A DNA stretch of 61,939 bases, taken from assembly GCA_964646755.1 (NCBI GenBank), contig CAZYIE010000005.1, positions 1-61,939 on the forward strand. The letters are read 5' to 3'. Under the pieces are notes generated by a model. That model was given only the letters and a program-made list of their open reading frames with translations. It was not told the DNA's origin and ran no database searches. Numbering within the stretch: the stretch's first letter is position 1; each line of letters opens with the position of its first letter. The position numbers and the translations under genes are program-made. Source of the DNA: an uncultured Smithella sp. (GTDB taxonomy: Bacteria; Desulfobacterota; Syntrophia; Syntrophales; Smithellaceae). Shown here piece after piece: positions 1 to 41,611 of the stretch.

Positions 1-97
1 GCACGACAGTGCGTGTGGCAATCTAAATATTATCAATGGCTTAAGAGATTGCTTCGCTCATCATATTCGCTCGCAAAGACATTGCGACACAGTCTCA
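1..97. repeat. Right part of a palindromic miniature element (GCAATCT...AGATTGC type) ending in the terminal repeat ATTGCGACACAGTCTC; left end lies outside the window
   Basis: Positions 1-52 match 57657-57708 at 51/52 nt, and both copies continue into ATTGCGACACAGTCTCA (here 81-97). Confidence 0.8.
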
Positions 98-148
98 TGC
101 GCCGGAACGACGTCATTTGGGACTTTATACAAGACCGTTAATGCGGAA

Positions 149-178
149 GGCTGAGGGCTGAAGACCGGCAGCCTAAAT
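149..178 (+). repeat. GGCTGAGGGCTGAAG...CAGCCTAAAT motif, copy 1
   Basis: The same 15-mer and 10-mer recur at 3694-3708 and 3734-3743. Confidence 0.6.
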
Positions 179-184
179 TATTTA

Positions 185-213
185 TTGACAATTGGACTGA
201 TTTATTTTAGTTT
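185..213 (+). promoter_or_regulatory. Sigma70-type promoter for the leader peptide and oxidoreductase operon
   Basis: TTGACA (185-190), 17-nt spacer, TAGTTT (208-213); GAGGA RBS at 229-233 before the leader ATG at 243. Confidence 0.65.
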
Positions 214-242
214 TCTTTAAAATTAATTGAGGATTTTGAGAG

Positions 243-341
243 ATGACCGGCGAATATAAGAGAAACATAGCAATTCTGTTTGAACTCCTGTTGTGCCTTC
301 TCCTTCTGGTGCTATCACTTTCCATCGCCCGTCGTTTTTAG
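243..341 (+). CDS. Leu-rich leader peptide, 32 aa (MTGEYKRNIAILFELLLCLLLLVLSLSIARRF); below the ORF-track length cutoff
   Basis: Translated by hand: ATG 243 to TAG 339-341, RBS 9 nt upstream, 10 Leu + 3 Ile + 1 Val; the stop codon lies inside the antiterminator arm. Confidence 0.75.
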   Translation: MTGEYKRNIAILFELLLCLLLLVLSLSIARRF

Positions 342-405
342 GAAAAACCGATAAAAAACAAAATCCTAAAGGCCATGGGCAGAAAAACCATGGCCTTTTT
401 ACTTT
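327..405 (+). promoter_or_regulatory. Transcription attenuator with antiterminator (327-343 : 364-380) and intrinsic terminator (368-378 : 388-398, then TTACTTT)
   Basis: The terminator stem AAAGGCCATGG/CCATGGCCTTT is a perfect 11-bp repeat. The alternative 16-bp stem (3 G-U pairs, one C/C mismatch) sequesters the terminator's whole 5' arm. Confidence 0.75.
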
Positions 406-454
406 AGTAAGTTAGAAACGCACTTATCCCGTTTATCGGGGCTAGGAAACTTTT

Positions 455-1021
455 ATGCATGAAATCATTTGGCACGGCAGAGGTGGTCAAGGGGTGGTCG
501 TTGCAGCACAAATTCTCGCAGAGGCTGCATACCTGCAAGGTTATAAGGGCGTAACATCCGCTCCGACTTTCGGCCCGGAACGGCGCGGCGCACCACTCAC
601 AGCATCGACGAGAATTTCGGATGCACCGCTGAGAACTTTTGCGCAGATTGAATTTGCTGATATTGCCGTTGTTCTCGATCCCTCCTTGTTGAAAGTTGTT
701 GATATTCAAGGTTCACTCAAAGACGGCGGCTTAATTATTATTAATTCAGATTTACAGCCGGAGAATTTTCACCTGAGAGCTGGATTAAAGATTGCAGTCG
801 TTGATGCAGTGAAAGTCGCCCTGAAATTTCACCTGCTGAAAGAAGCGGCGCCGGTTGTCAATACACCATTGTTGGGCGCATTTGCCCGGGCATCAGACAT
901 AGTTTCCCTCGAATATATTGAAAAAGGATTAAAAAAGAAATTGCCGCCGCAAGTAGTTGCGGCAAACAGTATGGCCTTAAACATGGCTTATGAAGAAACG
1001 ATAATTAAGAAAATAGGCTGA
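455..1021 (+). CDS. porC: 2-oxoacid:ferredoxin oxidoreductase gamma subunit
   Basis: N-terminal HGRGGQGVV and FGPERRGAP motifs; first gene of a gamma-delta-alpha-beta cluster. Confidence 0.9.
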   Translation: MHEIIWHGRGGQGVVVAAQILAEAAYLQGYKGVTSAPTFGPERRGAPLTASTRISDAPLRTFAQIEFADIAVVLDPSLLKVVDIQGSLKDGGLIIINSDLQPENFHLRAGLKIAVVDAVKVALKFHLLKEAAPVVNTPLLGAFARASDIVSLEYIEKGLKKKLPPQVVAANSMALNMAYEETIIKKIG

Positions 1022-1035
1022 AGAATTACTTTTTC

Positions 1036-1137
1036 TGTCATTCCGTCCTGCATGCGCCGGATGCTATTCCAGCGAAGCGCGACACGGAATCCAGTATTAT
1101 CGGCAAGTTCTGGATACCGGCTTTCGCCGGTATGACA
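1036..1137. repeat. Palindromic miniature element (GTCATTCCG...GGAATCCAG...CTGGATACCGGC-TTTC-GCCGGTATGAC type) between the gamma and delta genes
   Basis: TGTCAT/ATGACA ends; internal inverted pairs ATCCAG/CTGGAT (1089-1094/1110-1115) and ACCGGC/GCCGGT (1116-1131). Confidence 0.7.
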
Positions 1138-1175
1138 TCCTTGCTTTCGGTCTAGCAACCTAAAGGACTGACTAT

Positions 1176-1469
1176 ATGGAAAAGAAAGACAAGAATATTT
1201 CCGCCATGAGTACACCGGCAATAGGTGAAGCAGGATTTACCGGCGACTGGCGCGACATGAAACCGGTTATCGATCACGGCAAATGCATCCCTTCCGTAAA
1301 AAACAAGCCGGCCTGCTATTTGTGCTGGTTGTATTGTCCCGAAGGAGTAATCAAAACAGGCATTCCGGTGGAAATCGATATGGACTACTGCAAAGGTTGC
1401 GGGATTTGCGCGGAAGAATGTCCGGCCAAAGCAATCACCATGGTAAACGAGGGGGACGACAATGGCTGA
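1176..1469 (+). CDS. porD: 2-oxoacid:ferredoxin oxidoreductase delta subunit (2x[4Fe-4S] ferredoxin-like)
   Basis: CYLCWLYCP and CKGCGICAEECP cluster motifs; TGDWR motif; position in operon. Confidence 0.9.
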   Translation: MEKKDKNISAMSTPAIGEAGFTGDWRDMKPVIDHGKCIPSVKNKPACYLCWLYCPEGVIKTGIPVEIDMDYCKGCGICAEECPAKAITMVNEGDDNG

Positions 1470-2667
1470 AGTGCAAACAATGACCGGCAACACGGCCGCA
1501 GCTACAGCGGTGAAACTGTGCCAGGTTCAGGTAGTCTCTGCTTATCCGATAACACCGCAAACTTCTGTTACGGAAACACTGTCGCAATTCATCGAAAGCG
1601 GCCAGTTAAAGGCCGAATATGTCCGGGTGGAAAGCGAACATTCCGCCATGACGGTTTGCATTTCGGCCTCTACTGTAGGTGCCAGAGTATTCACTTCCAC
1701 CAGCTCGCATGGTTTGCTTTACATGCATGAGCAACTGCACTGGGCGGCGGGATCGCGTCTGCCCATCGTCATGTGCTGTGTGAATCGCGGCGTTGGAGCT
1801 CCGTGGTCAATATTTAATGATCAGCAGGATTCTATTTCTCAGCGTGATACCGGTTGGATTCAACTTTATTGCCGCGACAATCAGGAGATCATTGACACGG
1901 TTATTCAGGCTTATCGTATTGCCGAAGAAGTTTATGCACCCGTTATGGTTTGCTATGACGGCTTTGTTCTTTCCCATACAATGATGCCCGTTTGTCTGCC
2001 TGATGCCGAGCAGGTAAATTCTTTTCTGCCAGCCTACAAACCGCATACGATTCTTTCGGCCGATAATCCGCGCAATATCAACCCTGTTATTTTCCCGGGA
2101 ATGCGGAAAAATTCGGCGGGAATTCTTTGCGACGGCTATATGGAAATACGTTATAAACTGCAGGAAGCTCTGGAAAAAGCAAGAGATGTTATTGTCTCTA
2201 CCGGAATGAAATATTCAAAACTTACCGGCCGCGATTACAGTGGAATGTTGTGGCACTACAAAACCGATGATGCGGAGGTAATTTTAACCGGTATGGGATC
2301 CATTGCTACAGAAGCCACCGTTGCTGTTGACGAATTGCGACTCGCAGGCATCAAAGCCGGTGTTGTCGGAGTGCGTGTTTTCCGCCCGTTCCCCCGTACT
2401 GCGATCCAGCAGGCTTTGAAAAATGCCCACGCTATTATTGTTCTGGAAAAAGATATCAGTTATGGCTATGAAGGCGCGCTTTGCTCAGACATTAAAGCGG
2501 CGCTTTACGGAACCGGCATTAATCCACCACTGCATAATTTCATCGCCGGATTGGGCGGACGTGATGTAAAAGCGCGGGAAATATTCGAAGCAGTCCAGAC
2601 ATCACTTAACGAAATGAATAGTCAAAATGCACAAAATAAAACCATCTGGATAAACTGCCGTAAATAA
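1462..2667 (+). CDS. porA: 2-oxoacid:ferredoxin oxidoreductase alpha subunit
   Basis: AYPITPQT, VESEHSA, FRPFP and GLGGRD motifs. Confidence 0.93.
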   Translation: MAEVQTMTGNTAAATAVKLCQVQVVSAYPITPQTSVTETLSQFIESGQLKAEYVRVESEHSAMTVCISASTVGARVFTSTSSHGLLYMHEQLHWAAGSRLPIVMCCVNRGVGAPWSIFNDQQDSISQRDTGWIQLYCRDNQEIIDTVIQAYRIAEEVYAPVMVCYDGFVLSHTMMPVCLPDAEQVNSFLPAYKPHTILSADNPRNINPVIFPGMRKNSAGILCDGYMEIRYKLQEALEKARDVIVSTGMKYSKLTGRDYSGMLWHYKTDDAEVILTGMGSIATEATVAVDELRLAGIKAGVVGVRVFRPFPRTAIQQALKNAHAIIVLEKDISYGYEGALCSDIKAALYGTGINPPLHNFIAGLGGRDVKAREIFEAVQTSLNEMNSQNAQNKTIWINCRK

Positions 2668-2774
2668 ACCCCGTTAGAAATAACGGGAGTTTCGGAATTG
2701 CAGATGTCTGTATTATGCCGACATCTTGGAACCATTAAACATTCGAAAAGCGTTAGAAAAATTTCTAACGGGGT
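2668..2774. mobile_element. 107-bp MITE-like element with perfect 14-bp terminal inverted repeats, between the alpha and beta genes
   Basis: ACCCCGTTAGAAAT (2668-2681) and ATTTCTAACGGGGT (2761-2774); begins immediately after the porA stop codon; non-coding interior. Confidence 0.7.
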
Positions 2775-2789
2775 AAAAGGAAATGAGTC

Positions 2790-3689
2790 ATGCCGGAAAA
2801 TTTGTTTAAAGTTAATAAAGAAGAATATATGCTGCCGGGAAATAGATCCTGCCAGGGTTGTGGTCTCTCCCTGGCTTATCGCTATGCTCTCAAAGCGTTG
2901 CGCGAAAATACTATTTTGACGATTCCAGCCAGTTGCCTCACTGTTCTGCATGGTTTATATCCGACAACATCCGTAACTATTCCGTGCCTTAACTGCACTT
3001 TTGCCAGCACGGCAGCCTCTGCCGCCGGCCTCGTCGCCGGACTTGCCGCCACCGGCAGAGCGGATACTACAGTTGTGGCCTTTGCCGGTGACGGCGGGAC
3101 GTATGACATCGGCATCCAGGCGTTGAGCGGAGCAGCGGAAAGAGGGACCGATTTTATTTTTGTCTGCTATGATAACGAAGGCTATATGAACACGGGAACC
3201 CAGCGTTCGAGTGCTACCCCGATGGGGGCAATCACAACAACAACACCGATCCTGACCAAAGAACAAAACAAAAAAGATATGCTGAAAATTATGGAAGCTC
3301 ACGATATTGCTTATATTGCCACCACAACGCCTGCATATCCTATTGACCTCTACGATAAATTCGTCAAAGCCAAACGCATTAAGGGAACACGTTATATGCA
3401 AATTCATGTTCCCTGTCCGCCGGGCTGGGGTTTTCCACCGCGCGACACGGTAAAAATAGCGCGATTGGCTATCGAAACCGGTGTCTTTGTTCTCTTCGAA
3501 ATGGAAAATGGAAAATTCCGTTTTACCGGCCGCAGTAAGTCACTGGCGGAAAAAGGTAATCGCCTGCCTTTAATAAATTATATCGAACGACAGGATCGCT
3601 TTAAAAAAATTAGCGAAGAACAACTGCACAGTATGCAGAAATTTATCGATAACAAGTGGAATGAATACTTAAAAAAGGCTGAGAGCTAA
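2790..3689 (+). CDS. porB: 2-oxoacid:ferredoxin oxidoreductase beta subunit (TPP-binding)
   Basis: SCQGCG, GDGGTYDIG...YDNEGYMNTG TPP-binding motif, and PCPPGW. Confidence 0.93.
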   Translation: MPENLFKVNKEEYMLPGNRSCQGCGLSLAYRYALKALRENTILTIPASCLTVLHGLYPTTSVTIPCLNCTFASTAASAAGLVAGLAATGRADTTVVAFAGDGGTYDIGIQALSGAAERGTDFIFVCYDNEGYMNTGTQRSSATPMGAITTTTPILTKEQNKKDMLKIMEAHDIAYIATTTPAYPIDLYDKFVKAKRIKGTRYMQIHVPCPPGWGFPPRDTVKIARLAIETGVFVLFEMENGKFRFTGRSKSLAEKGNRLPLINYIERQDRFKKISEEQLHSMQKFIDNKWNEYLKKAES

Positions 3690-5053: not shown

Positions 5054-5380
5054 CTAAAAAAAAGAATTAAGGTGTTCTAAGATATCGCTTAAATATTTAT
5101 CGGCAACTCGATCAGCGAACTTTGCATTGCGAGAAGAATAGTCCAAGGCTTTTATTTGTTCCAACATTACACAACCGGCAACTTTTTTACATCCTATCAA
5201 CTCCATATGCAGCGGATAATCTTTTTTTTGAGACGTAATTGGACAAACTATAGCGAAACCGGTTAAGCGATTAAAGTCATCTTTACTGACTACTAATGCC
5301 GGTCGATGACCAGCTTGCTCGTGACCTTTTTGCGGATTAAAGTCAATCCAAATAACGTCACCTTGCTGGGGAATGTACAT
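5054..5380 (-). CDS. mazF: PemK/MazF-family toxin (endoribonuclease)
   Basis: QGDVIWIDFNPQKGHEQAGHRPALVVS and CPITSQ motifs; ATG overlaps the antitoxin stop (TAATG). Confidence 0.9.
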   Translation of the reverse strand: MYIPQQGDVIWIDFNPQKGHEQAGHRPALVVSKDDFNRLTGFAIVCPITSQKKDYPLHMELIGCKKVAGCVMLEQIKALDYSSRNAKFADRVADKYLSDILEHLNSFF

Positions 5381-5610
5381 TACCACTCCTCACGTCCTTT
5401 GGGACCATCCCAAAACTCTTCCGGTTTTTCACCGGTATAGCCGGAAAATAATGTTTCCAAATCATATTTTTTAGGTTTTTGAATGATAATTCTATTTCTA
5501 TCAGCAATTAGTTCCACCGATTCGTTAACCTGAATACCCACCATATCAATTAATTTTTTGGGTAGCCTGATTCCTTGACTCCCGCCCCAACTTTGAACTT
5601 TGGTAAACAT
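5380..5610 (-). CDS. mazE: AbrB/MazE-family antitoxin
   Basis: KVQSWGGSQGIRLPK AbrB-like N-terminus; C-terminal GPKGREEW; GGAGG RBS before ATG 5610. Confidence 0.88.
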   Translation of the reverse strand: MFTKVQSWGGSQGIRLPKKLIDMVGIQVNESVELIADRNRIIIQKPKKYDLETLFSGYTGEKPEEFWDGPKGREEW

Positions 5611-5628
5611 AGTCACACCTCCGGAAAA

Positions 5629-5657
5629 AGTATATACATATATAGACATATGGTCAA
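5629..5657 (-). promoter_or_regulatory. mazEF promoter with an overlapping GTATATAC palindrome (candidate autoregulatory operator)
   Basis: Minus strand TTGACC, 17 nt, TATACT; palindrome GTATATAC at 5630-5637. Confidence 0.7.
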
Positions 5658-6002: not shown

Positions 6003-6656
6003 ATGGCACTAATTGCCCCTTCTATCCTCTCAGCTGACGGCAGCAGGTTCGCCGAAGAAATTATCGCGGTGGAAAAAGCCGGAGCCGACTGGATTCACAT
6101 TGATGTAATGGACGGACATTTTGTCCCCAATATTACTCTGGGACCGGCAATCATAGCAGCGTTGAGAAAAACGACCAAACTCCCTTTTGATGTACACTTG
6201 ATGATTGAGAACCCCGAAGACTACATCGAATCCTTTGCAGAAGCCGGTGCCGACATCATCACCGTCCATGTGGAAGCGGCCAATCATCTCCATCGCACGA
6301 TTGATCTGATAAAAAAAAATGGCAAGAAAGCGGGTGTATCGTTGAATCCGGCAACCCCGCTGAACCAGATAGAAGACATCCTGCCCGACATTGATCTTTT
6401 GTTGATCATGACCGTAAACCCCGGCTTTGGCGGTCAGCAATTTATTAAAAGCACCTTGCCGAAAATTGCCCGGGCCAGCCAATTATTGAGCGCCTTACCC
6501 AATAAACCTTTATTGGAAGTGGATGGTGGAGTTAATTTACAAAACATAAATAGCATTGCCCAGGCCGGGGCCCAGGTATTGGTGGCCGGAAATTCTGTCT
6601 TCAGCACGTCGGATTACGTCAAAACAATTTCCGAACTGAAGGCCTCTATTGTTTAG
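6003..6656 (+). CDS. rpe: Ribulose-phosphate 3-epimerase
   Basis: IAPSILSAD, HIDVMDGHFVPN, DVHLM, MTVNPGFGGQ and EVDGG motifs. Confidence 0.97.
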   Translation: MALIAPSILSADGSRFAEEIIAVEKAGADWIHIDVMDGHFVPNITLGPAIIAALRKTTKLPFDVHLMIENPEDYIESFAEAGADIITVHVEAANHLHRTIDLIKKNGKKAGVSLNPATPLNQIEDILPDIDLLLIMTVNPGFGGQQFIKSTLPKIARASQLLSALPNKPLLEVDGGVNLQNINSIAQAGAQVLVAGNSVFSTSDYVKTISELKASIV

Positions 6657-8463
6657 TTTTATTTTTCTCTTCATTCAGTATCATTCGAAGTAATTGTCGC
6701 GCTTCTTCGGAATCGGGCTTGAGGTAAACAGCCGTTCGAAAATGTTTTATAGCTTCTTCCCGCTCGCCTTTTTGGATCAGCGCAATGCCAATATTGTAAT
6801 GCGCACCAAAATAATCTGGTTGTATTTTAAGCTCCTGCCGGTAGTGATAAATTGCCTCATCATATTTTTTATAGTGCATTTCCAAAATAATCCCTAACTT
6901 ATTGTGTGCATTAGCAAAATTAGGATTAACGCGTATTGTTTCGATAAAATATTTCTCCGCTTCTTCCATGTTTTTTTGATCTAAATATGCACTGGCTAAG
7001 TTATAATAAGCGTGGGAATAAGCAGGCTTAATTTTTATAGCATTTTTATAATTGTTAATTGCTTCTTCGTGTTTTCCTTCGGCATCCAGCGCAACACCCA
7101 AACTATCGTGCGCCCGATAGTTATTTTTTGTAGCTATCAGAGCATGATTAAACAGAGTAATGCTGTTTTTCCAGTAGCCACACTGTTGCCAGGTTAGCAC
7201 CATTAAAACAGTCAGCACAATTGCTGCTGTCGGAATTAAAATAATTTTACGCAGTTTTTCTCTAGGCAATAAGTAATCAGTCCCCCAAACCAGCATGATG
7301 GCAATGCCGATTGATGGAAGATAAGTGTAACGGTCAGCCATAGCCTGATCACCGGCTTGCATCAATCCAATAACAGGAAACAAAGTACCTAAATACCAAA
7401 GCCAGCCAATAGCTAAAAAAGGGATTTTCTTGGCCAGATAAACAACAGCAGCACTTATTGCCAATAGCACAGAAGCAGCTCCTAAAACCTGCCACAATGA
7501 AAAAGAATGCTCATAAGGATAAAAAACCGCCAGATCAACCGGCCAGAATGTTTTACCAAGATAAGATGCGTAAGATACAAGAGCGTTCATTATGCGATCG
7601 GCAAAAGGAACTGCTTGCAGCGAAGCCATATGATTATCGGCGCGTAATTGCCCAATCAGCATAATACCCAAAACTATTGACAGAAGGAAGAATGGCGCCT
7701 TTTCCCATAAAATGTTGCCGATCAATGGGGAGTTACTTTTGACCGGAATAGCTATCTTTTTCTCCAGGGAAGAGGTGGTTTTACTCTGCTTACTTTTTCT
7801 CCTGCCGGTTTTTTGATCAGCGACTGCTGGAGTATTCACTGGAGTTAGCTGTTTTTGCCAGCGGGCCAGAGGCCAATAATCAAGCAAAAGCAGAACACAA
7901 GGCAGTGTAACCAAGGTGGGTTTGGACATGAGGCTCAAAGCAAACAACAGCAGACAAAGACAATATTTAGCAACTTGAGGTTTTTCAACATAATAAGCAT
8001 ATGCATAGAGCGAGCCCATACCGAAAAACATGCTCAAAACATCCTTATGCTCAGCGGCCCAGGCGACTGATTCCACCCGCAAGGGATGAAGGGCAAAAAG
8101 TGCCGCCACAAAGGCGGAAGGCCAAAGACGTTTCGTGGTTTTGTTCAAAAAAAGGAATAAAAAGAGAACAGCGCCAATATGCAAAAGCAGGCTGACGAGG
8201 TGATAACCAGAAGCATTTACTCCAAACATCCGCCATTCCAGCATGATGGAAAGCCAGGTCAGGGGATGCCAGTACTCCAGCCGGGAATTGGTAAATGCCC
8301 ATTGAATACTCTCGGCTGTAATGCCTGATTGAACATAAATGTTTTCCGTGATTAATCTATTATCGTCAAAATTTACAAAGTCATTACCCAGAGTCCTGCC
8401 AAAGGCGATGAAAGAAGCTACTATTAAGAAAGCTATAATTAAATGCTTGTATTTATTATTCAT
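6646..8463 (-). CDS. TMTC-like multi-pass membrane protein (putative GT-C glycosyltransferase) with about 4 C-terminal TPRs, copy A
   Basis: NFDD acidic loop after TM1; WHPLT, HPLRVESVAW, SKPTLVTLP and ADRYTYLP motifs; TPR repeats. Start set at ATG 8463 by identity with copy B. Confidence 0.8.
   Translation of the reverse strand: MNNKYKHLIIAFLIVASFIAFGRTLGNDFVNFDDNRLITENIYVQSGITAESIQWAFTNSRLEYWHPLTWLSIMLEWRMFGVNASGYHLVSLLLHIGAVLFLFLFLNKTTKRLWPSAFVAALFALHPLRVESVAWAAEHKDVLSMFFGMGSLYAYAYYVEKPQVAKYCLCLLLFALSLMSKPTLVTLPCVLLLLDYWPLARWQKQLTPVNTPAVADQKTGRRKSKQSKTTSSLEKKIAIPVKSNSPLIGNILWEKAPFFLLSIVLGIMLIGQLRADNHMASLQAVPFADRIMNALVSYASYLGKTFWPVDLAVFYPYEHSFSLWQVLGAASVLLAISAAVVYLAKKIPFLAIGWLWYLGTLFPVIGLMQAGDQAMADRYTYLPSIGIAIMLVWGTDYLLPREKLRKIILIPTAAIVLTVLMVLTWQQCGYWKNSITLFNHALIATKNNYRAHDSLGVALDAEGKHEEAINNYKNAIKIKPAYSHAYYNLASAYLDQKNMEEAEKYFIETIRVNPNFANAHNKLGIILEMHYKKYDEAIYHYRQELKIQPDYFGAHYNIGIALIQKGEREEAIKHFRTAVYLKPDSEEARQLLRMILNEEKNKTKQ
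7118..8463. repeat. 1346-bp direct repeat, copy 1 (5' part of TPR gene A)
   Basis: Same sequence as 9053-10398 wherever compared by eye; four shadow ORFs in the track recur identically at offset 1935. Confidence 0.92.
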
Positions 8464-8490
8464 CTTCACCACTGCAACAATAAAAGATAG

Positions 8491-10398
8491 CTAACGCTTT
8501 TGCTTAATCGCCAAAGCTACCCGTAATATCTGGCGCGCTTCTTCATAGTCAGGCTTGAGGTAAACAGCCCGACGCAGATATTCGATAGCTTCTTCAATTT
8601 TACCTGTATTAGCCAAAGCCACACCCAAACTCATATAAATTCCGGGATCGTTTTGGTCTATTCGTAACGCCTGACGGAAATGATATAATGCTTCATCATG
8701 CTTAAGCTGTTTTCCTAAACATGTACCCAGATTAATGTGCGCACTCAAATAATCAGGATTAATACTTAAAGACTTGCGGTAATTTGTAATTGCCTCTTCA
8801 ATCTTTCCCTGCTTCTCAAGGGTAATGGCTAGGTTATAATAGGTATCACCTTTATTGGGATCAATTTTAATAGCAGCAAGATAATGAACAACAGCCTCCT
8901 CGTTTTTCCCTTGATCAGCCAATACTTTTCCCAGATCGAAATGAGCGTTATCGTGCTCGGGATAAATATTAATTGCCTTTTGATAATGGGCAATTGCTTC
9001 TTCCGAATTGCCTTGCTTTGAAAGGGCATCGGCTAAACAGTAATGGGCAAGGTAGTTATTTTTTGTAGCTATCAGAGCATGATTAAACAGAGTAATGCTG
9101 TTTTTCCAGTAGCCACACTGTTGCCAGGTTAGCACCATTAAAACAGTCAGCACAATTGCTGCTGTCGGAATTAAAATAATTTTACGCAGTTTTTCTCTAG
9201 GCAATAAGTAATCAGTCCCCCAAACCAGCATGATGGCAATGCCGATTGATGGAAGATAAGTGTAACGGTCAGCCATAGCCTGATCACCGGCTTGCATCAA
9301 TCCAATAACAGGAAACAAAGTACCTAAATACCAAAGCCAGCCAATAGCTAAAAAAGGGATTTTCTTGGCCAGATAAACAACAGCAGCACTTATTGCCAAT
9401 AGCACAGAAGCAGCTCCTAAAACCTGCCACAATGAAAAAGAATGCTCATAAGGATAAAAAACCGCCAGATCAACCGGCCAGAATGTTTTACCAAGATAAG
9501 ATGCGTAAGATACAAGAGCGTTCATTATGCGATCGGCAAAAGGAACTGCTTGCAGCGAAGCCATATGATTATCGGCGCGTAATTGCCCAATCAGCATAAT
9601 ACCCAAAACTATTGACAGAAGGAAGAATGGCGCCTTTTCCCATAAAATGTTGCCGATCAATGGGGAGTTACTTTTGACCGGAATAGCTATCTTTTTCTCC
9701 AGGGAAGAGGTGGTTTTACTCTGCTTACTTTTTCTCCTGCCGGTTTTTTGATCAGCGACTGCTGGAGTATTCACTGGAGTTAGCTGTTTTTGCCAGCGGG
9801 CCAGAGGCCAATAATCAAGCAAAAGCAGAACACAAGGCAGTGTAACCAAGGTGGGTTTGGACATGAGGCTCAAAGCAAACAACAGCAGACAAAGACAATA
9901 TTTAGCAACTTGAGGTTTTTCAACATAATAAGCATATGCATAGAGCGAGCCCATACCGAAAAACATGCTCAAAACATCCTTATGCTCAGCGGCCCAGGCG
10001 ACTGATTCCACCCGCAAGGGATGAAGGGCAAAAAGTGCCGCCACAAAGGCGGAAGGCCAAAGACGTTTCGTGGTTTTGTTCAAAAAAAGGAATAAAAAGA
10101 GAACAGCGCCAATATGCAAAAGCAGGCTGACGAGGTGATAACCAGAAGCATTTACTCCAAACATCCGCCATTCCAGCATGATGGAAAGCCAGGTCAGGGG
10201 ATGCCAGTACTCCAGCCGGGAATTGGTAAATGCCCATTGAATACTCTCGGCTGTAATGCCTGATTGAACATAAATGTTTTCCGTGATTAATCTATTATCG
10301 TCAAAATTTACAAAGTCATTACCCAGAGTCCTGCCAAAGGCGATGAAAGAAGCTACTATTAAGAAAGCTATAATTAAATGCTTGTATTTATTATTCAT
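8491..10398 (-). CDS. TMTC-like multi-pass membrane protein (putative GT-C glycosyltransferase) with about 5 C-terminal TPRs, copy B
   Basis: Identical to copy A up to ...ATKNNY, then a different TPR array. Confidence 0.8.
   Translation of the reverse strand: MNNKYKHLIIAFLIVASFIAFGRTLGNDFVNFDDNRLITENIYVQSGITAESIQWAFTNSRLEYWHPLTWLSIMLEWRMFGVNASGYHLVSLLLHIGAVLFLFLFLNKTTKRLWPSAFVAALFALHPLRVESVAWAAEHKDVLSMFFGMGSLYAYAYYVEKPQVAKYCLCLLLFALSLMSKPTLVTLPCVLLLLDYWPLARWQKQLTPVNTPAVADQKTGRRKSKQSKTTSSLEKKIAIPVKSNSPLIGNILWEKAPFFLLSIVLGIMLIGQLRADNHMASLQAVPFADRIMNALVSYASYLGKTFWPVDLAVFYPYEHSFSLWQVLGAASVLLAISAAVVYLAKKIPFLAIGWLWYLGTLFPVIGLMQAGDQAMADRYTYLPSIGIAIMLVWGTDYLLPREKLRKIILIPTAAIVLTVLMVLTWQQCGYWKNSITLFNHALIATKNNYLAHYCLADALSKQGNSEEAIAHYQKAINIYPEHDNAHFDLGKVLADQGKNEEAVVHYLAAIKIDPNKGDTYYNLAITLEKQGKIEEAITNYRKSLSINPDYLSAHINLGTCLGKQLKHDEALYHFRQALRIDQNDPGIYMSLGVALANTGKIEEAIEYLRRAVYLKPDYEEARQILRVALAIKQKR
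9053..10398. repeat. 1346-bp direct repeat, copy 2 (5' part of TPR gene B)
   Basis: Offset 1935 from copy 1; identity starts exactly at the ATG and ends at the first TPR. Confidence 0.92.
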
Positions 10399-30187: not shown

Positions 30188-31363
30188 TTAGATTTCTACG
30201 GAGGGTAAAATTTGTTGCGGTTCACCAAGAACAAACTTGCCGCTTTCTATCCATTCTTTCAACGTGTTAGCTATCTGTCTGGCCTTGTAGTAGCTGGACA
30301 GGGGCGCAGTAATTATTTTTTTCCCATCAATCGTGATTGTTCCACTACGCAGTTCTTTATAACTGACTTCCGCCAGAGGCTTGGATACGTTTTTAGGATA
30401 ATCCATGCTGTAATCATAAACTTGAGCATAAATGTCTTCATCCTTTACTGCCGTGAAACGTGCCATATCTTCATCCAAAATGGGAATGGGAATGCCTATC
30501 CCCACAAACAGGGAAACCCCATAACCGAGAATGCTTGCCGCAGCCAGCCACTCCGGGTTCATTTCTTTCAAATTACCCACCACAGCAATAGTACCGGCAC
30601 CTTCTTTCGGAACACCATTCGGACCGCGGGAAGCGTTTGGATTATGCTGGGTACCCGGCCAGGCAACAAAGCCCTGGGCTCCCCCTAGGAATATGCGCGT
30701 ACCAACGCCAATAGTCCGGTAATAGGGATCATTAAACAGTGGGCTCAATTGCCCCGCAGTTGCGTAATTGGCGTTGGCCATCCGCGGGCGCAGCATTCCC
30801 ATATAGGTATAAATCGTTGTATCCGATAAGTTTACAGCGCAATTGTAATTTTGATAAGCATTGCGGGGGTTAAATAACGTTGCATCACGCAAATCGTTTA
30901 TGGTAATATTTTTTTCAAATTTTCTGGCCGGATAGCAATCTGTGCCATAACCTTCGGCGCGTAATTTAATCACATTCCCGGATACCAGGTCCTCGATAAC
31001 ATGGCCGCCACCATAATTAAATTCTCCGGGATAAACACTGTTGAGCGGGTCTCCTTCGACGACTTCCGTGGCACCGATATAACAATCAACAGCAGCAATC
31101 CCGCCATACGCCGGCACATCATTTAACCAGACCTTGGATGCCCGAATTTTGGGAGAGGTATGACCGAAATTCAAGAATGCTCCCGATGAGCACATTGCTC
31201 CAAAAGTACCGGTTGTAACAACATCGATCTTGCGGGCAGCCTCGACTGCTCCATTATTTTCGACAATATCGATCATTTCTTCGGCAGTAACGACAACCGC
31301 CCGGCCATCTTTTATCTTCTCGTTAATTTCTCGAAATGTCTTTTTAACTTTAAATTTTTTCAT
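30188..31363 (-). CDS. Homocysteine biosynthesis protein (MJ0100/DUF39 family, aspartate-semialdehyde sulfurtransferase-like)
   Basis: INEKIKDGRAVVVTAEE, DVVTTGTFGAMCSSGA, NPRNAYQNY and TIYTYMG motifs; no CBS domains. Confidence 0.85.
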   Translation of the reverse strand: MKKFKVKKTFREINEKIKDGRAVVVTAEEMIDIVENNGAVEAARKIDVVTTGTFGAMCSSGAFLNFGHTSPKIRASKVWLNDVPAYGGIAAVDCYIGATEVVEGDPLNSVYPGEFNYGGGHVIEDLVSGNVIKLRAEGYGTDCYPARKFEKNITINDLRDATLFNPRNAYQNYNCAVNLSDTTIYTYMGMLRPRMANANYATAGQLSPLFNDPYYRTIGVGTRIFLGGAQGFVAWPGTQHNPNASRGPNGVPKEGAGTIAVVGNLKEMNPEWLAAASILGYGVSLFVGIGIPIPILDEDMARFTAVKDEDIYAQVYDYSMDYPKNVSKPLAEVSYKELRSGTITIDGKKIITAPLSSYYKARQIANTLKEWIESGKFVLGEPQQILPSVEI

Positions 31364-31999: not shown

Positions 32000-34120
32000 C
32001 TATGTCGCTTCAGCATCCATTGCTTCTTTCCGGCTAAGACGGATTTTGCCCTGCTTGTCCATCTCCAGAACCTTGACCATAACTTCATCGCCTTCTTTGA
32101 GGACATCAGTAACCTTGTTTACTCTTTCTTTGGATATTTGCGAAATGTGCAACAATCCTTCGGTGCCCGGTAAAATTTCGACAAAGGCTCCAAAATCAAC
32201 TATTTTCTTCACGGTGCCACGGTAAATTTTACCGACTTCCGCTTCTTCGGTAAGCCATTTAACCATAGCTACCGCACGGGCTGCCGCCTCGGCATCACTG
32301 GACGCAATCGTCACTGTGCCATCATCTTCGACGTCAATGGAAACACCAGTCTCACTAATAATCTGCCGGATATTTTTTCCACCTGATCCGATAACCGTCC
32401 GCACCTGATCTTCTTTCACCTTCACTGTGGTAATGCGCGGCGCGTAAAGCGAAATATCCGCTCGGGGCGCCGCCAGTGTTTCGCGGATTTTACCGATAAT
32501 ATGCACACGGCCGGCCCTTGCCTGGGCTAAAGCCTTGCGCAAAATGTCTTCAGTCAGTCCGTCTATTTTAATATCCATTTGCATAGCGGTAATGCCTTTT
32601 TCCGTACCGCACACTTTAAAATCCATGTCGCCGGCATGATCTTCGTCACCCAGAATATCCGATAAAATAACAACATTCTCCCCTTCTTTTAAAAGACCCA
32701 TGGCAATACCCGCCACAACATCTTTCACCGGAACTCCGGCATCCATCAGAGCTAAAATGCCACCGCAAACTGTCGCCATAGAAGATGAGCCGTTAGAGGA
32801 AAGTATTTCCGAAACAATGCGAATTGTATAAGGGAAAACATCCGCCGCGGGTAAAACAGGAACTAATGCTTTCCGGGCCAGAGCTCCATGGCCTATTTCT
32901 CTTCTCCCGGGACTACGTAAAGATTTTGCCTCGCCAACGCTATAAGGCGGAAAGTTATAATGGAGAATAAAAGATCGCCTCTCCTCTGCTGCTATATAAT
33001 CCAGGCGCTGCTCATCGGAAGACGTCCCCAGCGTTAGAGCGGCCAAAGCCTGCGTCTCGCCACGGTTAAATAAAGCCGATCCATGAGCACGGGGCAGAAT
33101 TCCCGCTTCTGAGCTAATCGGTCGGATTTCGGTAGATGACCTGCCGTCAATTCTTTTTTTATCCTGAATAATCATATCGCGTAAAATGCGTCTTTCCAGT
33201 TCTTCGATAATTCCGGCCACTTTTTTACAAACCGCAGCATCATCGCCGCCTATCTCTTTAATAACTTTCGCGCGCACTTCGTCCAGCCAACCATAGCGCT
33301 CCAGTTTACGGGGCATGCTATAGCCTGCTTGTAGATCAGCCAGCGCCACGGCACTTACTTTCGCCGTCAGCTCTGCATCGGTCTCTACTTCCGCTACGGC
33401 TCTTTTTTCGTGGCCGATTTCTTTGCGCATTTTGTCCTGCAAATCAATTACGGGGCGAATTGCTTCCAAACCGAATTTAATAGCATCAACAACGATGTCT
33501 TCAGCCACTTCTTTTGCATCGCCTTCCATCATGACAAGTTCGACATCGTAGTCGTGTCCGGCTTTGCTGGGAACAACTTTTCTGCCCACCATGAAAATAT
33601 TCAATTCGCTTGCCTGCATTTTCTCCGCGCTGGCATTGCAGACAAATTCGCCATTGATGCGGCCTACACGAACACCGGCAATGGGCCCCTTAAACGGAAT
33701 GTTGGATATTTCCAAAGCTGCCGAAGCGCCAATCATGGCAGCGATTTCAGCATCATTTTCCTTGTCCACGGAAAGAACTGTGGCAACCAGCTGTGTTTCG
33801 GAATAGTATCCCTTGGGAAACAACGGACGGATTGACCGGTCGACAATGCGGGAGATTAATATTTCCCTTTCATTAAGACGGCCTTCCCTTTTAAAGAATC
33901 CTCCCGGAATTTTTCCGGCAGCATAGGTCATTTCCTGATAGTCAACGGTCAACGGCAGAAAATCTATCCCTGCTCGGGCCGTTTTTAAAGACACGGCTGT
34001 TACCAGTACTACTGTGTCCCCATAATAAACCAGCGCCGAGCCATCGGCCTGGGCGGCAACGTAATTCGTTTTTAATGTGATATTACGCCCGGCAAAATCT
34101 GTACTAAATATATTACTCAT
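32000..34120 (-). CDS. pnp: Polyribonucleotide nucleotidyltransferase
   Basis: GKIPGGFFKREG, RREIGHG, SNGSSSMA and GDMDFKV motifs; KH and S1 domains. Confidence 0.98.
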   Translation of the reverse strand: MSNIFSTDFAGRNITLKTNYVAAQADGSALVYYGDTVVLVTAVSLKTARAGIDFLPLTVDYQEMTYAAGKIPGGFFKREGRLNEREILISRIVDRSIRPLFPKGYYSETQLVATVLSVDKENDAEIAAMIGASAALEISNIPFKGPIAGVRVGRINGEFVCNASAEKMQASELNIFMVGRKVVPSKAGHDYDVELVMMEGDAKEVAEDIVVDAIKFGLEAIRPVIDLQDKMRKEIGHEKRAVAEVETDAELTAKVSAVALADLQAGYSMPRKLERYGWLDEVRAKVIKEIGGDDAAVCKKVAGIIEELERRILRDMIIQDKKRIDGRSSTEIRPISSEAGILPRAHGSALFNRGETQALAALTLGTSSDEQRLDYIAAEERRSFILHYNFPPYSVGEAKSLRSPGRREIGHGALARKALVPVLPAADVFPYTIRIVSEILSSNGSSSMATVCGGILALMDAGVPVKDVVAGIAMGLLKEGENVVILSDILGDEDHAGDMDFKVCGTEKGITAMQMDIKIDGLTEDILRKALAQARAGRVHIIGKIRETLAAPRADISLYAPRITTVKVKEDQVRTVIGSGGKNIRQIISETGVSIDVEDDGTVTIASSDAEAAARAVAMVKWLTEEAEVGKIYRGTVKKIVDFGAFVEILPGTEGLLHISQISKERVNKVTDVLKEGDEVMVKVLEMDKQGKIRLSRKEAMDAEAT

Positions 34121-34160
34121 TTTTTCCCTCCATTTTCCTCATTTGTTCCGATACTCTGAA

Positions 34161-34248
34161 ATTTAAGGGCGAAATGCAATAGCCGACGGCTCCCAACAGA
34201 TCAACTGCTGTGGCCAATCGAATCAGCTATTGCCTTCCGCCCTTAAAT
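34161..34248 (-). promoter_or_regulatory. Long hairpin in the rpsO-pnp spacer (probable RNase III/pnp autoregulation structure)
   Basis: ATTTAAGGGCG/CGCCCTTAAAT (11 bp) plus GCAATAGC/GCTATTGC (8 bp); same position as the known E. coli pnp leader hairpin. Confidence 0.65.
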
Positions 34249-34254
34249 ACTTCC

Positions 34255-34521
34255 TTACTTCCTGAGTCCCAGACGTTTAATTATATTTCTGTATCGTTCG
34301 ACGTCATTATCCTTAATGTAGTTGAGAAGTCTTCTTCTCTGGCCAACCAGCTTCAAAAGACCGCGACGGGAATGATGATCCTTTTTATGCGACTTAAAAT
34401 GATCAGTCAGATATGAAATCCTGGCGCTGAGCAGTGCAATCTGGACTTCCGGAGATCCCGTATCTTTTTCATGAAGTCGGTATTCTCCAATAATTATTGT
34501 TCTTTTTTCGGTAGTTAACAC
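34255..34521 (-). CDS. rpsO: 30S ribosomal protein S15
   Basis: [12 protein letters not shown] and [22 protein letters not shown] motifs. Confidence 0.98.
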
Positions 34522-34570
34522 GCTTTTTTCCTCCCTATTAATTAATTCCTCGTAATCTAAATTTTAATTA

Positions 34571-35512
34571 TCAGTTTTGAACATTGTTAAAAACTCGCAC
34601 AATCTTGGCAGCCTGACTTTTCTCGTCAATTGACGAAAAATTACTCACCGGTGTCACCATTTCTGCTATTGCCACAAGATAACCCCGGCGATTAATGAAC
34701 TTTATCATATCTCCCGTTTCCAGAAAAGGGAGGACATGGGCCTTCATTGTCTCCACGGAAGGCTGAAATCCGTCACGCAACCTGCCGGCAAAAATATCTT
34801 CTATTTCTATGGAAGTCAACAAAGGTAATAGTTTTGTCATTGGCAACATCTTTGCCAGAAGTTCGCCTTTCTTTTCCTCGGGCAAACTATTCGTAAGCGG
34901 AATAGCCATATCTTCCGAAAAAAAACCGCTCCGCAGCCGGCGCAAGCTGCATAAACAGGCGCCACAACCGAGCGCATTACCGACATCGGCACATAAAGTT
35001 CGAATGTATGTTCCCTTCGAACAGGCGACCCGAAAAGTTACCCGGGGGTAAGAAATATCCTCTACGATAATGTATTGGATTTCCACTTCCCGCGGCTGAG
35101 TTTCTATAATAATACCCTTGCGTGCCCATTTGTACAAAGGCTCTCCGCAATGCTTAATTGCCGAATACGCCGGAGGGACCTGCATAATTTTCCCCACCAT
35201 CCGGGATAATGCCGCCCGAATTTCTTCAACTGACGCCACCTTGTCGGACTGGCCGGTAATTTCCCCTTCCGTATCCAATGTATCCGTTTGCACACCAAGC
35301 AACATTGTGGCCAAGTATTCTTTACTGTCATCAGTCAAAAACCGGGCCAGTTTTGTCGCTTCATTCAGGCAGACAGGAAGCACTCCCGTGGCCATGGGAT
35401 CAAGCGTTCCCGTATGGCCGACTTTTTTGGCGCCCAATATTTTTTTTACTTGGGCAACAACATCGTGTGATGTGATGCCCGCCGGTTTGTCGATAATAAC
35501 GACGCCATCCAT
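34571..35512 (-). CDS. truB: tRNA pseudouridine(55) synthase
   Basis: KPAGITSHD, GHTGTLDP, PPAYSAIK and CSKGTYIR motifs. Confidence 0.96.
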   Translation of the reverse strand: MDGVVIIDKPAGITSHDVVAQVKKILGAKKVGHTGTLDPMATGVLPVCLNEATKLARFLTDDSKEYLATMLLGVQTDTLDTEGEITGQSDKVASVEEIRAALSRMVGKIMQVPPAYSAIKHCGEPLYKWARKGIIIETQPREVEIQYIIVEDISYPRVTFRVACSKGTYIRTLCADVGNALGCGACLCSLRRLRSGFFSEDMAIPLTNSLPEEKKGELLAKMLPMTKLLPLLTSIEIEDIFAGRLRDGFQPSVETMKAHVLPFLETGDMIKFINRRGYLVAIAEMVTPVSNFSSIDEKSQAAKIVRVFNNVQN

Positions 35513-35518
35513 ATATAA

Positions 35519-36469
35519 TTATAATTCCTTAATTGCTTCCATAATCTTAGTTTTAATTGAATCAATATCGCCTTCGATTCGGCAAGCGGCAGCGTTAATG
35601 TGACCGCCACCGCCAAACTTTTTTGCTACTTTTTCTACGTTAACTTGACCTTTGGAACGCAAGCTGAGCTTAAAGCAATTGTCGTTTAACTGGGAATACA
35701 GTATCGAAATTTCAATTCCCTGTATGGCACGGGGAATATCAACAAAACCATCAGTATGCTCCATTGATGCTCCTGCTTCTTGCAGCATTTTATGGGTCAC
35801 AACGAGCGAACCAACTTTCATATTCAAATCAAGGAATAGTGTCTCCAGTGTTTTGGCCAGCAATTTTAACTTCGCCGGAGGATCGCTTTCGTAAATATTT
35901 TCCGAAATCCACTGCGGGTCAGCCCCTTTTTCCACCAATGTTGCCGCCGCCCAAAGAGCACCATGACGAGTGTTGGAGTAGCGGAATCCACCGGTATCCG
36001 TAAGAATAGCCGCATACAAATTGGTACAAATATCTTTGGTCATTTGGACGCTCATTTCTTTCATCAGACGGTAAATTAATTCGCCTGTTGAGCTGGCCTG
36101 AGCATCGATTAACTTTATCTCACAAAAACCACCATTGGAAATATGATGATCAATATTAATCAGTTTTTTTATTTTACTCAATTTCTCTGCCTGGTCGCCA
36201 ACTCGTTCCAATTCACTGCAATCAAGCACAAAAGCGGCATCATATTGTTCCAGATCGCCTGATGTATGAACAATGTTCTGTGCCGCCGGTAAAAACCGGT
36301 AATGTTCCGGCGTGCTATCCTGATTATAGATAACGGCCCTTTTACCTAAATCCCGGAGCATAAGATAAACAGCCAGTTCCGAACCAAGCGCATCACCATC
36401 CAGCCGAACATGGGATGTTATAAGAAAATTCTGTCCTTCATTTATGGCTGCGATAATTTCTTTAATCAT
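35519..36469 (-). CDS. nrnA: DHH-family oligoribonuclease/pAp phosphatase
   Basis: SHVRLDGDALGS, IDHH, TDTGGF and GGGHINAA motifs; conserved position after rbfA. Confidence 0.88.
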   Translation of the reverse strand: MIKEIIAAINEGQNFLITSHVRLDGDALGSELAVYLMLRDLGKRAVIYNQDSTPEHYRFLPAAQNIVHTSGDLEQYDAAFVLDCSELERVGDQAEKLSKIKKLINIDHHISNGGFCEIKLIDAQASSTGELIYRLMKEMSVQMTKDICTNLYAAILTDTGGFRYSNTRHGALWAAATLVEKGADPQWISENIYESDPPAKLKLLAKTLETLFLDLNMKVGSLVVTHKMLQEAGASMEHTDGFVDIPRAIQGIEISILYSQLNDNCFKLSLRSKGQVNVEKVAKKFGGGGHINAAACRIEGDIDSIKTKIMEAIKEL

Positions 36470-36821
36470 TTTCTTTTTCTTCCTTGGCTATATCCGCCAG
36501 GAGCTGATCAATCCGGTTGCCATATCCAAATGACTGATCATGAACGAACATAATGTCGGGAACACAACGCAACTGCAATCTTTTGCCTAATTCCCGGCGG
36601 ACAAAACTGGTGGCCTTCGCCAAGCCCGCCTTAATTTCGTCAGAACAATCGTCTTTTCCCAGTTCCACAAAAAAAATCTTGGCATTACGCAGATCGTCAG
36701 TTACCTTCACCGAGGTAATGGTTACGGCATGGACGCGGGGATCTCTGACCTGCTTGAATATTATATCAGACATCTCGGTCATAATCAGCTCGGCCACCCT
36801 GTCTGCTCTTTTAAAGTTCAT
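36462..36821 (-). CDS. rbfA: Ribosome-binding factor A
   Basis: RADRVAELI, RDPRV and LRCVPDI motifs. Confidence 0.95.
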   Translation of the reverse strand: MNFKRADRVAELIMTEMSDIIFKQVRDPRVHAVTITSVKVTDDLRNAKIFFVELGKDDCSDEIKAGLAKATSFVRRELGKRLQLRCVPDIMFVHDQSFGYGNRIDQLLADIAKEEKEND

Positions 36822-36845
36822 CGTACTTGCCTGTATCCGAGAATG

Positions 36846-39425: not shown

Positions 39426-39465
39426 GCACGAAACTCCCCAAATTAAATTTCACCATACTGAAGCA

Positions 39466-40725: not shown

Positions 40726-40822
40726 TTACAAATTCCTCCCTCTTTCTTCGCTGATGTAAAAACAAAATTTCAGCCTGTCGGCATTAATTCCCAAAATATT
40801 GAACAAAACTGTCGCAATTTAT

Positions 40823-41293: not shown

Positions 41294-41302
41294 AATGGCT
41301 CA

Positions 41303-41331
41303 GAAAATAAAAAAGTGGGCAAAAGCCCACT
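41303..41331 (-). promoter_or_regulatory. rimP leader terminator-like hairpin
   Basis: Minus strand AGTGGGC-TTTT-GCCCACT followed by TTTTTATTTT just before the rimP ATG; such leaders are known ahead of rimP-nusA. Confidence 0.7.
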
Positions 41332-41487
41332 CAAATTTACACAGAAAGCGATGGTTTGTTGTTTAGCTAGCACACTAAAACTGGCAATGCAAGAAAAAAA
41401 TGCTGCAACCATTGCCTGCCGGGCTTGTCACCACGGGTATAAATTTCAAAGCGGGCTTTGGAATTTATACGCTCCGCTGTGCGGGAT

Positions 41488-41609: not shown

Positions 41610-41611
41610 AT

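Follow-up and report, generated by a model that had tools for sequence, protein, structure and literature searches.

Leader-peptide attenuation is the textbook mode of control of amino-acid biosynthesis operons in Proteobacteria, Actinobacteria, and some Firmicutes. The enterobacterial leuL leader, which regulates leuABCD, carries four consecutive and mostly rare CUA codons. Leucine is also the signal of the Leu T-box leaders, tRNA-sensing riboswitches that precede leuA or leuS in Firmicutes and in some Deltaproteobacteria. Among the genes for branched-chain amino acids (BCAA), leader attenuators have been described for ilvBNC in Corynebacterium (PMC11857589, PMC10272879) and, as a "leucine-rich attenuator peptide", for the ilv-leu operon of Staphylococcus aureus (PMC5794164). 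Here, we analyze an element found between positions 185 and 454 of a stretch of 61,939 nt from an uncultured Smithella sp. (GenBank assembly GCA_964646755.1, contig CAZYIE010000005.1, positions 1 to 61,939), the whole of which is called the window below. The homologues of its PorA protein place the window in Syntrophales/Smithellaceae. The element lies directly upstream of porCDAB, four genes encoding the gamma, delta, alpha, and beta subunits of a 2-oxoacid:ferredoxin oxidoreductase, and we read it, with a probability of roughly 0.85, as a ribosome-mediated (leader-peptide) transcription attenuator that would tie the expression of porCDAB to the supply of charged tRNA-Leu.

A previous reading of this DNA, made from the sequence only, had proposed a layout of the leuL/ilvL/trpL type. 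The open reading frame (ORF), the Leu run, the position of the stop codon, the terminator, and the antiterminator of such a layout are all present, and they are conserved in Syntrophales. In other words, every feature by which leader-peptide attenuators are recognized in sequences was found here: an ORF with its Shine-Dalgarno (SD) sequence, a cluster of Leu codons, a terminator, an antiterminator, and an adequate geometry of the stop and stall positions. With leuL (Leu_leader, RF00512), the element has in common a short ORF with clustered Leu codons, alternative hairpins, and a terminator before the first gene, as well as Leu as the sole sensed amino acid, which is known for leuL and suggested here by conservation. 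It differs from leuL in its host, which belongs to the Syntrophales instead of the Gammaproteobacteria, in its Leu codons, which are interspersed (L-L-x-L-x-L-L) and of all codon families, in its protector, which would be the leader's own start site, and in its target, a 2-oxoacid:ferredoxin oxidoreductase. It also fails to match the sequence and structure model of RF00512. The ilv attenuators (E. coli ilvL and ivbL, Corynebacterium, S. aureus) also have a Leu-rich or Leu/Val/Ile-rich hydrophobic leader that controls a terminator, and their models have at least three hairpins, one of them for pausing or protection. Yet, they control acetolactate synthase or other BCAA genes, often in response to several BCAA, whereas the element of the window seems to concern Leu only and porCDAB only.

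With E. coli trpL and its 1:2 / 2:3 / 3:4 model, the element shares mutually exclusive helices, a ribosome that masks region 2 when at the stop codon, termination by default in the absence of leader translation, and a hairpin that probably serves for pausing. In trpL, region 1 holds the control codons, whereas here region 1 would be the SD/AUG region (234-247), the control codons are placed between regions 1 and 2, and a separate hairpin, which we call P1, follows them in the relatives. Finally, Leu T-box leaders share the signal, uncharged versus charged tRNA-Leu, and the output, a terminator or an antiterminator, but the conserved ORF suggests that the sensor here is a translating ribosome, and no T-box model of Rfam matched. 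More generally, the search of positions 1-3000 of the window with the covariance models of Rfam (cmscan) gave no match at E<=1, and at the gathering threshold the whole window revealed a tRNA alone, with no leader or T-box family. Hence, the element is outside Leu_leader (RF00512), the T-box, and any curated family. We found no prior description of it in the full-text literature, which comprised few subscription papers, so that an earlier account is possible. The Leu-rich attenuators in the searched full text concerned BCAA biosynthesis operons only, with none on an oxidoreductase or in Syntrophales. As far as these checks go, the ferredoxin oxidoreductase remains the unusual target that it had seemed to be at first sight.

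The element starts with a sigma-70-type promoter at 185-213, which consists of TTGACA (-35, 185-190), a 17-nt spacer, and TAGTTT (-10, 208-213), in the forward strand as all the features of the element and of the operon. The SD sequence GAGGA (230-234) is placed 8 nt before the ATG at 243 that opens the leader ORF (243-341), whose 32 codons encode MTGEYKRNIAILFELLLCLLLLVLSLSIARRF and end with the stop codon TAG at 339-341. The composition of this peptide includes 10 Leu, 3 Ile, and 1 Val. Nine of the Leu codons, which are the putative control codons, are in 285-320, where the core 285-308 reads L-L-L-C-L-L-L-L, and they are of five types (CTC, CTG, TTG, CTT, and CTA). The promoter, the ribosome binding site, the ORF with its composition, and the nine Leu codons of five types had all been reported in the sequence-only reading, and we found them at the same places; the promoter is also conserved in the aligned relatives. 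When all 710 ORFs of 20-60 aa were considered in the six frames of the window, the leader ORF ranked first in Leu density, and its densest stretch has 9 Leu in 12 codons while the next-best small ORF has 7. A generic scan for promoters and terminators overlooked both ends of the element, the promoter because its -10 box matches TATAAT at just 3 of 6 positions and the terminator because of a loop longer than 8 nt. These misses are thus a matter of scan thresholds, not of absence.

The intrinsic terminator (368-400) has a stem of 11 bp (368-378/388-398), a loop of 9 nt (379-387), and a U-run (396-400), and its energy is -18.6 kcal/mol when evaluated alone. It ends 54 nt before the ATG of porC at 455, which agrees with the 11-bp terminator and the distance of about 50 nt given in the sequence-only reading. 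The alternative stem, the antiterminator, pairs region 327-343 (GCCCGUCGUUUUUAGGA, hereafter arm 2), which holds the stop codon of the leader, with region 364-380 (UCCUAAAGGCCAUGGGC, hereafter arm 3), which overlaps the 5' arm of the terminator. It spans 17 positions with 16 pairs, of which 3 are G-U, and a C-C mismatch at 333/374, for a total of -20.7 kcal/mol. This stem is the minimum free energy (MFE) fold of every transcript of the window that ends before the 3' arm of the terminator (arm 4). Hence, folding bears out the proposal of a 16-bp stem that includes the leader stop codon, covers the 5' arm of the terminator, and excludes it. The region 220-460 as a whole folds at -65.5 kcal/mol (z = -3.3 relative to shuffled sequences), and the alternative stem is obtained when the 3' arm is withheld.

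The evidence that these features are more than the product of chance comes from comparative conservation and not from the single sequence. We fetched 80 genome loci by the alignment of PorA alone, so that the upstream DNA was outside the selection, and 72 of the upstream regions had enough DNA to be informative. The contig of one Syntrophus aciditrophicus metagenome-assembled genome (MAG), L030, begins 93 nt upstream of porC and is uninformative on the element. The same layout with a Leu-rich ORF was found in around 67 of the 72 informative loci, with PorC proteins down to 59% identity and leaders such as ...GLLCLSLLLMGLNPSPVVFRK, ...RRGLLLRLALPGVG..., and ...LLNLSSLLSLALSRGK... A strict terminator pattern was matched in 65 of the 72 regions, namely the window, 63 complete elements, and one locus with the terminator only (L007), and three further loci with an imperfect U-run lead to the figure of around 67 complete elements. 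The search upstream of orthologous operons that the sequence-only reading had recommended thus recovers the Leu-rich ORF in the large majority of the loci. In the alignment A3 of 53 relatives, TTGAC and, 17 nt downstream, the T and A of TAnnnT are at least 90% conserved, and so are the SD-like purine block (GGGG/GGGA/AGGA) and the nearly invariant ATG that follows it.

We also scanned metagenomes with a pattern made of arm 2 and arm 3 only, which returned 82 contigs. They encode 65 distinct leader peptides with a median of 10 Leu. Since arms 2 and 3 were the basis of their selection, we used these loci only for the link with porC, the Leu run, P1, and the helix of the start region. Among the 76 contigs with enough downstream DNA, all have porC 37-395 nt downstream of the motif, which indicates that this family of attenuators is dedicated to porCDAB. 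The scan revealed no arm 2 plus arm 3 motif before other operons (leu, ilv), although attenuators of different sequence are undetectable by this pattern, and there is no second copy of the motif elsewhere in the window. When genomes and metagenome contigs are put together, the element is conserved in around 140 loci of Syntrophales, with 125 distinct natural variants. Its anatomy, conservation, covariation, codon-level selection, and exclusive link with porCDAB are computed results.

The codons of the leader show that Leu itself is under selection. In the alignment A2 of 60 leaders, five codon columns are Leu in 55-59 leaders, with a mix of UUR and CUN codons and never UUY (Phe); one such column has 24 TTG, 20 CTG, 6 TTA, 3 CTT, and 2 CTA. 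The core has a 3-nt periodicity, since the second position is T in 58-59 of the 60 leaders for four of the Leu columns and in 48 for the fifth, while the first position toggles between C and T and the third is variable in most columns. The result is a conserved core L-L-x-L-x-L-L in which the columns between the conserved Leu drift (C/S/R/L and A/S/L/T). This pattern implies selection on the identity of the amino acid or of the tRNA, not on the RNA sequence or on general hydrophobicity. It weighs against the alternative that survives best, if at a low probability, in which the element reports general translation capacity (e.g., under stringent conditions) and the Leu run is the commonest hydrophobic filler. 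Leu is indeed the most abundant amino acid (9.4% of the codons in the genes of the window), the leaders use all Leu codon families without rare-codon bias, and the target does not count among the canonical Leu enzymes. Under this alternative, one would not expect five columns to be fixed as Leu next to drifting neighbors, nor that I, V, F, and M do not replace Leu, a pattern that marks control codons for one specific amino acid, such as those of leuL or pheL. The Ile and Val codons of the peptide of the window show no conservation across the aligned leaders, and the suggestion that Ile or Val might also be sensed is therefore unsupported, the conserved columns being Leu only.

The positions where the ribosome would stop or stall are also conserved, independently of the encoded peptide. 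Three reading frames cross the conserved RNA block CCCGUCGUUUUUAGGA, in 47, 12, and 1 leaders, and the peptides end in ...ARRF, ...PVVFRKx, or ...PSLSG just before the stop codon. In most relatives the UAG of the window is read through in another frame, and the stop codon is found 1-3 codons past arm 2. Still, the stop codon starts between -4 and +9 nt from the last base of the arm 2 block in all 60 leaders, and an invariant Leu codon is placed 23-27 nt upstream of arm 2. The use of three frames with a fixed spacing of the stop and stall positions indicates selection on these positions and not on the C-terminal peptide. An arrest by the nascent peptide via the "PVVFRK" or "ARRF" C-termini was also considered, and we rejected it because the same RNA is read in different frames.

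The terminator is 98.6% paired over the 60 leaders, four of its pairs show compensatory changes (e.g., GGCCACGG/CCGUGGCC), its U-run is nearly invariant across the relatives, and it is the one helix of an independent RNAalifold consensus. Hence, the covarying stems that the sequence-only reading had asked for were found in the terminator and almost not at all in the antiterminator, where double substitutions are scarce because both arms are nearly invariant. For this reason, the antiterminator was assessed per sequence, by folding each of the 60 leaders after truncation before arm 4. In all 60 truncated leaders, the 5' arm of the terminator finds a partner upstream, on average for 85% of its bases, and the mean energy of these folds is -22.7 kcal/mol versus -19.6 kcal/mol for the terminators (z < -2 in 39 of 60). 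In the main alignment the antiterminator is 87% paired, compared with 33-57% when the partner is slid. It also forms in two groups (B and C) with another construction of arm 2 (CCCGCGGCCUGUCAUCUCUGU... and CCCGUGGCCUGCCAUAUCGAGGGAA...). The support for the predicted antiterminator is thus made of sequence conservation, slid controls, thermodynamics, and the differing arms of groups B and C.

While both stems of the sequence-only reading stand, it did not include two other structures, the hairpin P1 of the relatives and a protector helix at the start site. In the relatives, P1 is a hairpin of 6 bp, flanked directly by the Leu run and arm 2 (A2 columns 50-55:63-68), with compensatory changes in 5 of the 6 pairs (GAUGGG/CCCAUC, GACGCG/CGCGUC, GCCGGG/CCCGGC, GGUGGG/CCCACC). 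It is replicated in the metagenome leaders, 58 of 68 of which have a hairpin with dG <= -5 kcal/mol, with many variants of the stem. The corresponding position in the window (307-326) has only a weak stem of 3-4 bp, either GUG308-310:CAC315-317 or GGUG307-310:CAUC323-326. The U-run of arm 2 is around 11 nt downstream of P1, and by analogy we conjecture that P1 is probably a hairpin where the RNA polymerase pauses until the ribosome catches up. The 3' arm of P1 as an alternative partner of arm 3 was rejected, since stems like GACGCG:CGCGUC cannot pair with arm 3.

The second structure involves the initiation region of the leader (234-247), which acts as the putative protector strand (region 1) and pairs with 331-344 when free of ribosomes: the consensus UUCCUGAAAAUGAC of the former pairs with GUCGUUUUUAGGAA of the latter. 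In A3, 80% of the cells of this helix are paired, versus 35-53% in slid controls, and 29 cells have double changes, versus 13.9+-3.0 in shuffled alignments. The pairing takes the form GAUGACAGG:CCUGUCAUC in group B. In the 68 metagenome leaders, the duplex between the start region and arm 2 has a mean energy of -14.1 kcal/mol, compared with -6.3 kcal/mol for shuffled start regions and -6.6 kcal/mol for interior windows. The MFE fold of the full-length leader of the window holds this helix alongside the terminator.

Arms 2-4 (327-398 in the window) are nearly invariant, e.g., GGCCAUGG is found in at least 50 of the 60 leaders, even if the PorC proteins are only around 60% identical. This near-invariance plausibly results from stacked pairing constraints, since in our model arm 3 pairs with arms 2 and 4 and arm 2 also pairs with the start region; it may also be due to a bound factor. 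As such conservation is unusual for plain helices, and as the antiterminator lacks compensatory changes, one could see in the conserved RNA a switch that binds a ligand or a protein, akin to a riboswitch, in which the ORF is incidental. We regard this as quite unlikely, because the Leu columns swap UUR and CUN codons and yet remain Leu, without UUY, because the ATG and the SD sequence are conserved and the position of the stop is kept in three frames, because none of the 4227 Rfam families matches at E<=1, and because the multiple pairing constraints can account for the conservation of the arms. Less probable again, to the point of being barely tenable, is a small membrane peptide with a function of its own, encoded by ORF 243-341 and equipped with its own terminator, with porCDAB transcribed separately or by leakage. 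The peptide in the clade of the window does resemble a single transmembrane helix (ILFELLLCLLLLVLSLSI). In most relatives, however, the Leu core is broken by R, P, and G (e.g., RRGLLLRLALPGVG, LLRLALLLPGSD) and lacks a helix-like character. Neither terminus is conserved at the peptide level, and the codons of the C-terminus are read in three frames. Most loci have just 37-60 nt from the terminator to porC, and no element occurs away from porC. The hairpins are also conserved together with the ORF, whereas the sequence-only reading had named a membrane peptide conserved without hairpins among the outcomes that would refute attenuation.

To describe how the attenuator would work, we combined the data on the leader ORF and on the structures with the established model of trp/leu/his attenuation, from which we infer termination, stalling, pausing at P1, and induction by Leu starvation. 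Transcription would start around 7 nt past the -10 box (208-213), and a ribosome would load at GAGGA and the AUG at 243 to translate the 32-codon leader. When Leu-tRNA is ample, the ribosome would reach the stop codon (339-341) and cover arm 2 (327-343), so that arms 3 and 4 would form the terminator (368-398 and the U-run) and the RNA polymerase would halt before porC. When Leu-tRNA is scarce, the ribosome would stall among the Leu codons (285-320), 20 nt or more before arm 2, so that its leading edge would not reach this arm, which would stay free. Arm 2 would then take arm 3 (364-380) as soon as it is made, which would pre-empt the terminator and allow read-through into porCDAB. If the leader is untranslated, the start region (234-247) would sequester arm 2 and the terminator would form, i.e., the default state would be off. 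In most relatives, P1 would synchronize the RNA polymerase with the ribosome. Under this model, porCDAB would be induced by Leu starvation, as had been proposed.

Several points weigh against the attenuator. The -10 box of the window is poor, and to our knowledge there is no study of the coupling of transcription and translation in these bacteria. The antiterminator has just two cells with compensatory double substitutions in the main alignment, and the metagenome loci cannot serve as a test of this helix because they were selected by its arms. The helix with the best covariation, P1, is weak or absent in the clade of the window, and the helix between the start region and arm 2 could in principle compete with the antiterminator during the stall of the ribosome. 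The element is absent from four relatives (L021, L040, L045, and L050) and L007 retains the terminator alone. The relatives come without exception from MAGs of uncultured organisms or from metagenome contigs. Finally, the target is not a recognized enzyme of Leu biosynthesis, so that the physiological logic is conjectural.

The loci that depart from the usual organization have different sequences upstream of porC. In L021, L040, and L045 we found a different short leader, with a promoter-like TTGAC...TTTTGTTCTA and, after it, a small hairpin and a T-run, while L050 has neither this leader nor the Leu leader. The locus L007 (L007:2781-3020, Smithellaceae MAG SPRUCE 595) is a deletion derivative, where the promoter and a sequence resembling the start region (AUCCUGGAAUG) are joined directly to the conserved terminator, with loss of the Leu run, P1, and arm 2. 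A short ORF starting at the AUG of this sequence would cross the terminator. The distance to porC is also variable. The gene porC is 180-395 nt past the end of the arm 3 motif, instead of the usual 40-60 nt or so, in L092, L097, L099, L111, L014, L015, L057, and others. The distance from the terminator to porC is roughly 25-30 nt shorter than the one measured from the arm 3 motif. In the window (401-454), there are around 37 nt more between the terminator and porC than in the closest relatives (L001-L004), and this extra DNA includes a small hairpin (CCCG-UUUAU-CGGG, 427-439) just ahead of the SD sequence of porC.

The four genes downstream of the element belong to the pyruvate/2-ketoisovalerate family of 2-oxoacid:ferredoxin oxidoreductases (PorCDAB/VorCDAB). 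The first, porC (gamma, 455-1021), matches TIGR02175 PorC_KorC with 179.6 bits (cutoff 81.1) and PF01558. It is followed by porD (delta, with 2x[4Fe-4S], 1176-1469; TIGR02179 PorD_KorD, 92.2 bits for a cutoff of 60), by porA (alpha, 1462-2667; PF01855 and PF17147), and by porB (beta, thiamine pyrophosphate-binding, 2790-3689; NF008818 with 382 bits and NF008819 with 350 bits). The products of the operon also match PF00037 and PF02775. The next gene, waaA, is convergent in the window and in 72 of 95 related loci, and the operon thus consists of porCDAB only. It stops at porB, without extra genes that would hint at a pathway, and there are no leu or ilv genes in the operon or in the window, the remainder of which encodes housekeeping and beta-oxidation-type functions.

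The substrate of this enzyme could be pyruvate, as in pyruvate:ferredoxin oxidoreductases (POR, or PFOR), or a branched-chain 2-oxoacid, as in 2-ketoisovalerate:ferredoxin oxidoreductases (VOR). The alpha subunit has its best score with PorA_Arch (451 bits, cutoff 550), followed by VorA (384 bits), while the beta subunit has its best score with the VOR-beta subfamily (382 bits, cutoff 405), followed by PorB (350 bits), so that neither subunit reaches an NCBIfam equivalog cutoff for POR or VOR. The closest solved structure to the porA product is a four-subunit PFOR (9bt4_B, 314 bits). The Thr of YPITP and the Arg and Ile aligned with Thr31, Arg114, and Ile123 of the D. africanus PFOR are conserved; presumably these residues are family-wide and not tied to one substrate. 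The NCBIfam scores and the alignments with structures are thus ambiguous as to POR or VOR.

Two roles can be considered for the enzyme. Among the abundant amino acids, leucine is the most expensive in pyruvate and acetyl-CoA, and its synthesis consumes two pyruvate and one acetyl-CoA. The operon porCDAB may encode an anabolic pyruvate synthase whose expression, costly in ferredoxin, is gauged by Leu. The order of the genes and the PorA score favor this role. The other role, which we consider possible though less likely than not, is that of a 2-oxoisocaproate (4-methyl-2-oxopentanoate) synthase dedicated to the supply of Leu, by reductive carboxylation of isovaleryl-CoA with reduced ferredoxin. 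It would make of porCDAB, again tentatively, an isovalerate-scavenging route to Leu that is switched on by uncharged tRNA-Leu, and not a housekeeping pyruvate synthase. The Leu-only leader somewhat favors such a branched-chain 2-oxoacid synthase. The carboxylation of isovalerate and the subsequent amination are presented as a route to Leu in rumen microbes in the discussion of PMC7356843. If porCDAB were to provide this route, its regulation through a leader peptide and its occurrence in syntrophs would both be novel.

In either role, the target is a low-potential redox enzyme that carries the annotation of a pyruvate:ferredoxin oxidoreductase, and the attenuator would bring to it, in the Syntrophales (Thermodesulfobacteriota), a device known from amino-acid biosynthesis operons. 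A link between the expression of a ferredoxin-consuming carboxylase and the demand for Leu in energy-starved syntrophs would be a specific and testable clue to function, and the regulatory RNA could be used to re-annotate a family of enzymes whose substrate is unreadable from sequence. With its start-site protector, its covarying putative pause hairpin, and its 125 variants, the element is also a compact and well-sampled attenuator from which design rules might be derived.

The surroundings of the operon contain repeated sequences. A direct repeat of 52 nt with 98% identity is found at 1-52, immediately upstream of the por promoter, and at 57657-57708 of the window. The similarity decays after around 70 nt, and the two copies probably belong to a small dispersed repeat. 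The spacer between porC and porD (1022-1175) has 154 nt, compared with around 25 nt in distant relatives, and folds at -50.8 kcal/mol (z = -2.6). One of its 27-mers, CTGGATACCGGCTTTCGCCGGTATGAC, recurs inverted in the same spacer of L015 (L015:3585-3611), which suggests an insert resembling a miniature inverted-repeat transposable element (MITE) or a repetitive extragenic palindromic (REP) sequence.

The other features noted in the window are all in the reverse strand. A toxin of the MazF family of endoribonucleases is encoded at 5054-5386 (NF007386, 104.9 bits, below the cutoff of 120), and it is preceded by an overlapping ORF of 89 aa at 5380-5649 that is antitoxin-like and has no NCBIfam match. 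Two adjacent paralogs with TPR repeats (608 and 635 aa) are found at 6646-10398, and they share 300 nt at 96% identity (7088-7387/9023-9322). A protein of 391 aa (30188-31363) is a partial match to the "methanogenesis marker 16 metalloprotein" (TIGR03287, 143.9 bits, cutoff 364), in what is a bacterial genome. A housekeeping cluster at 32000-41686 comprises pnp (32000-34120), infB (36846-39425), and nusA (39466-40725), and the same region includes a tRNA-Gly(CCC) gene at 41612-41686.

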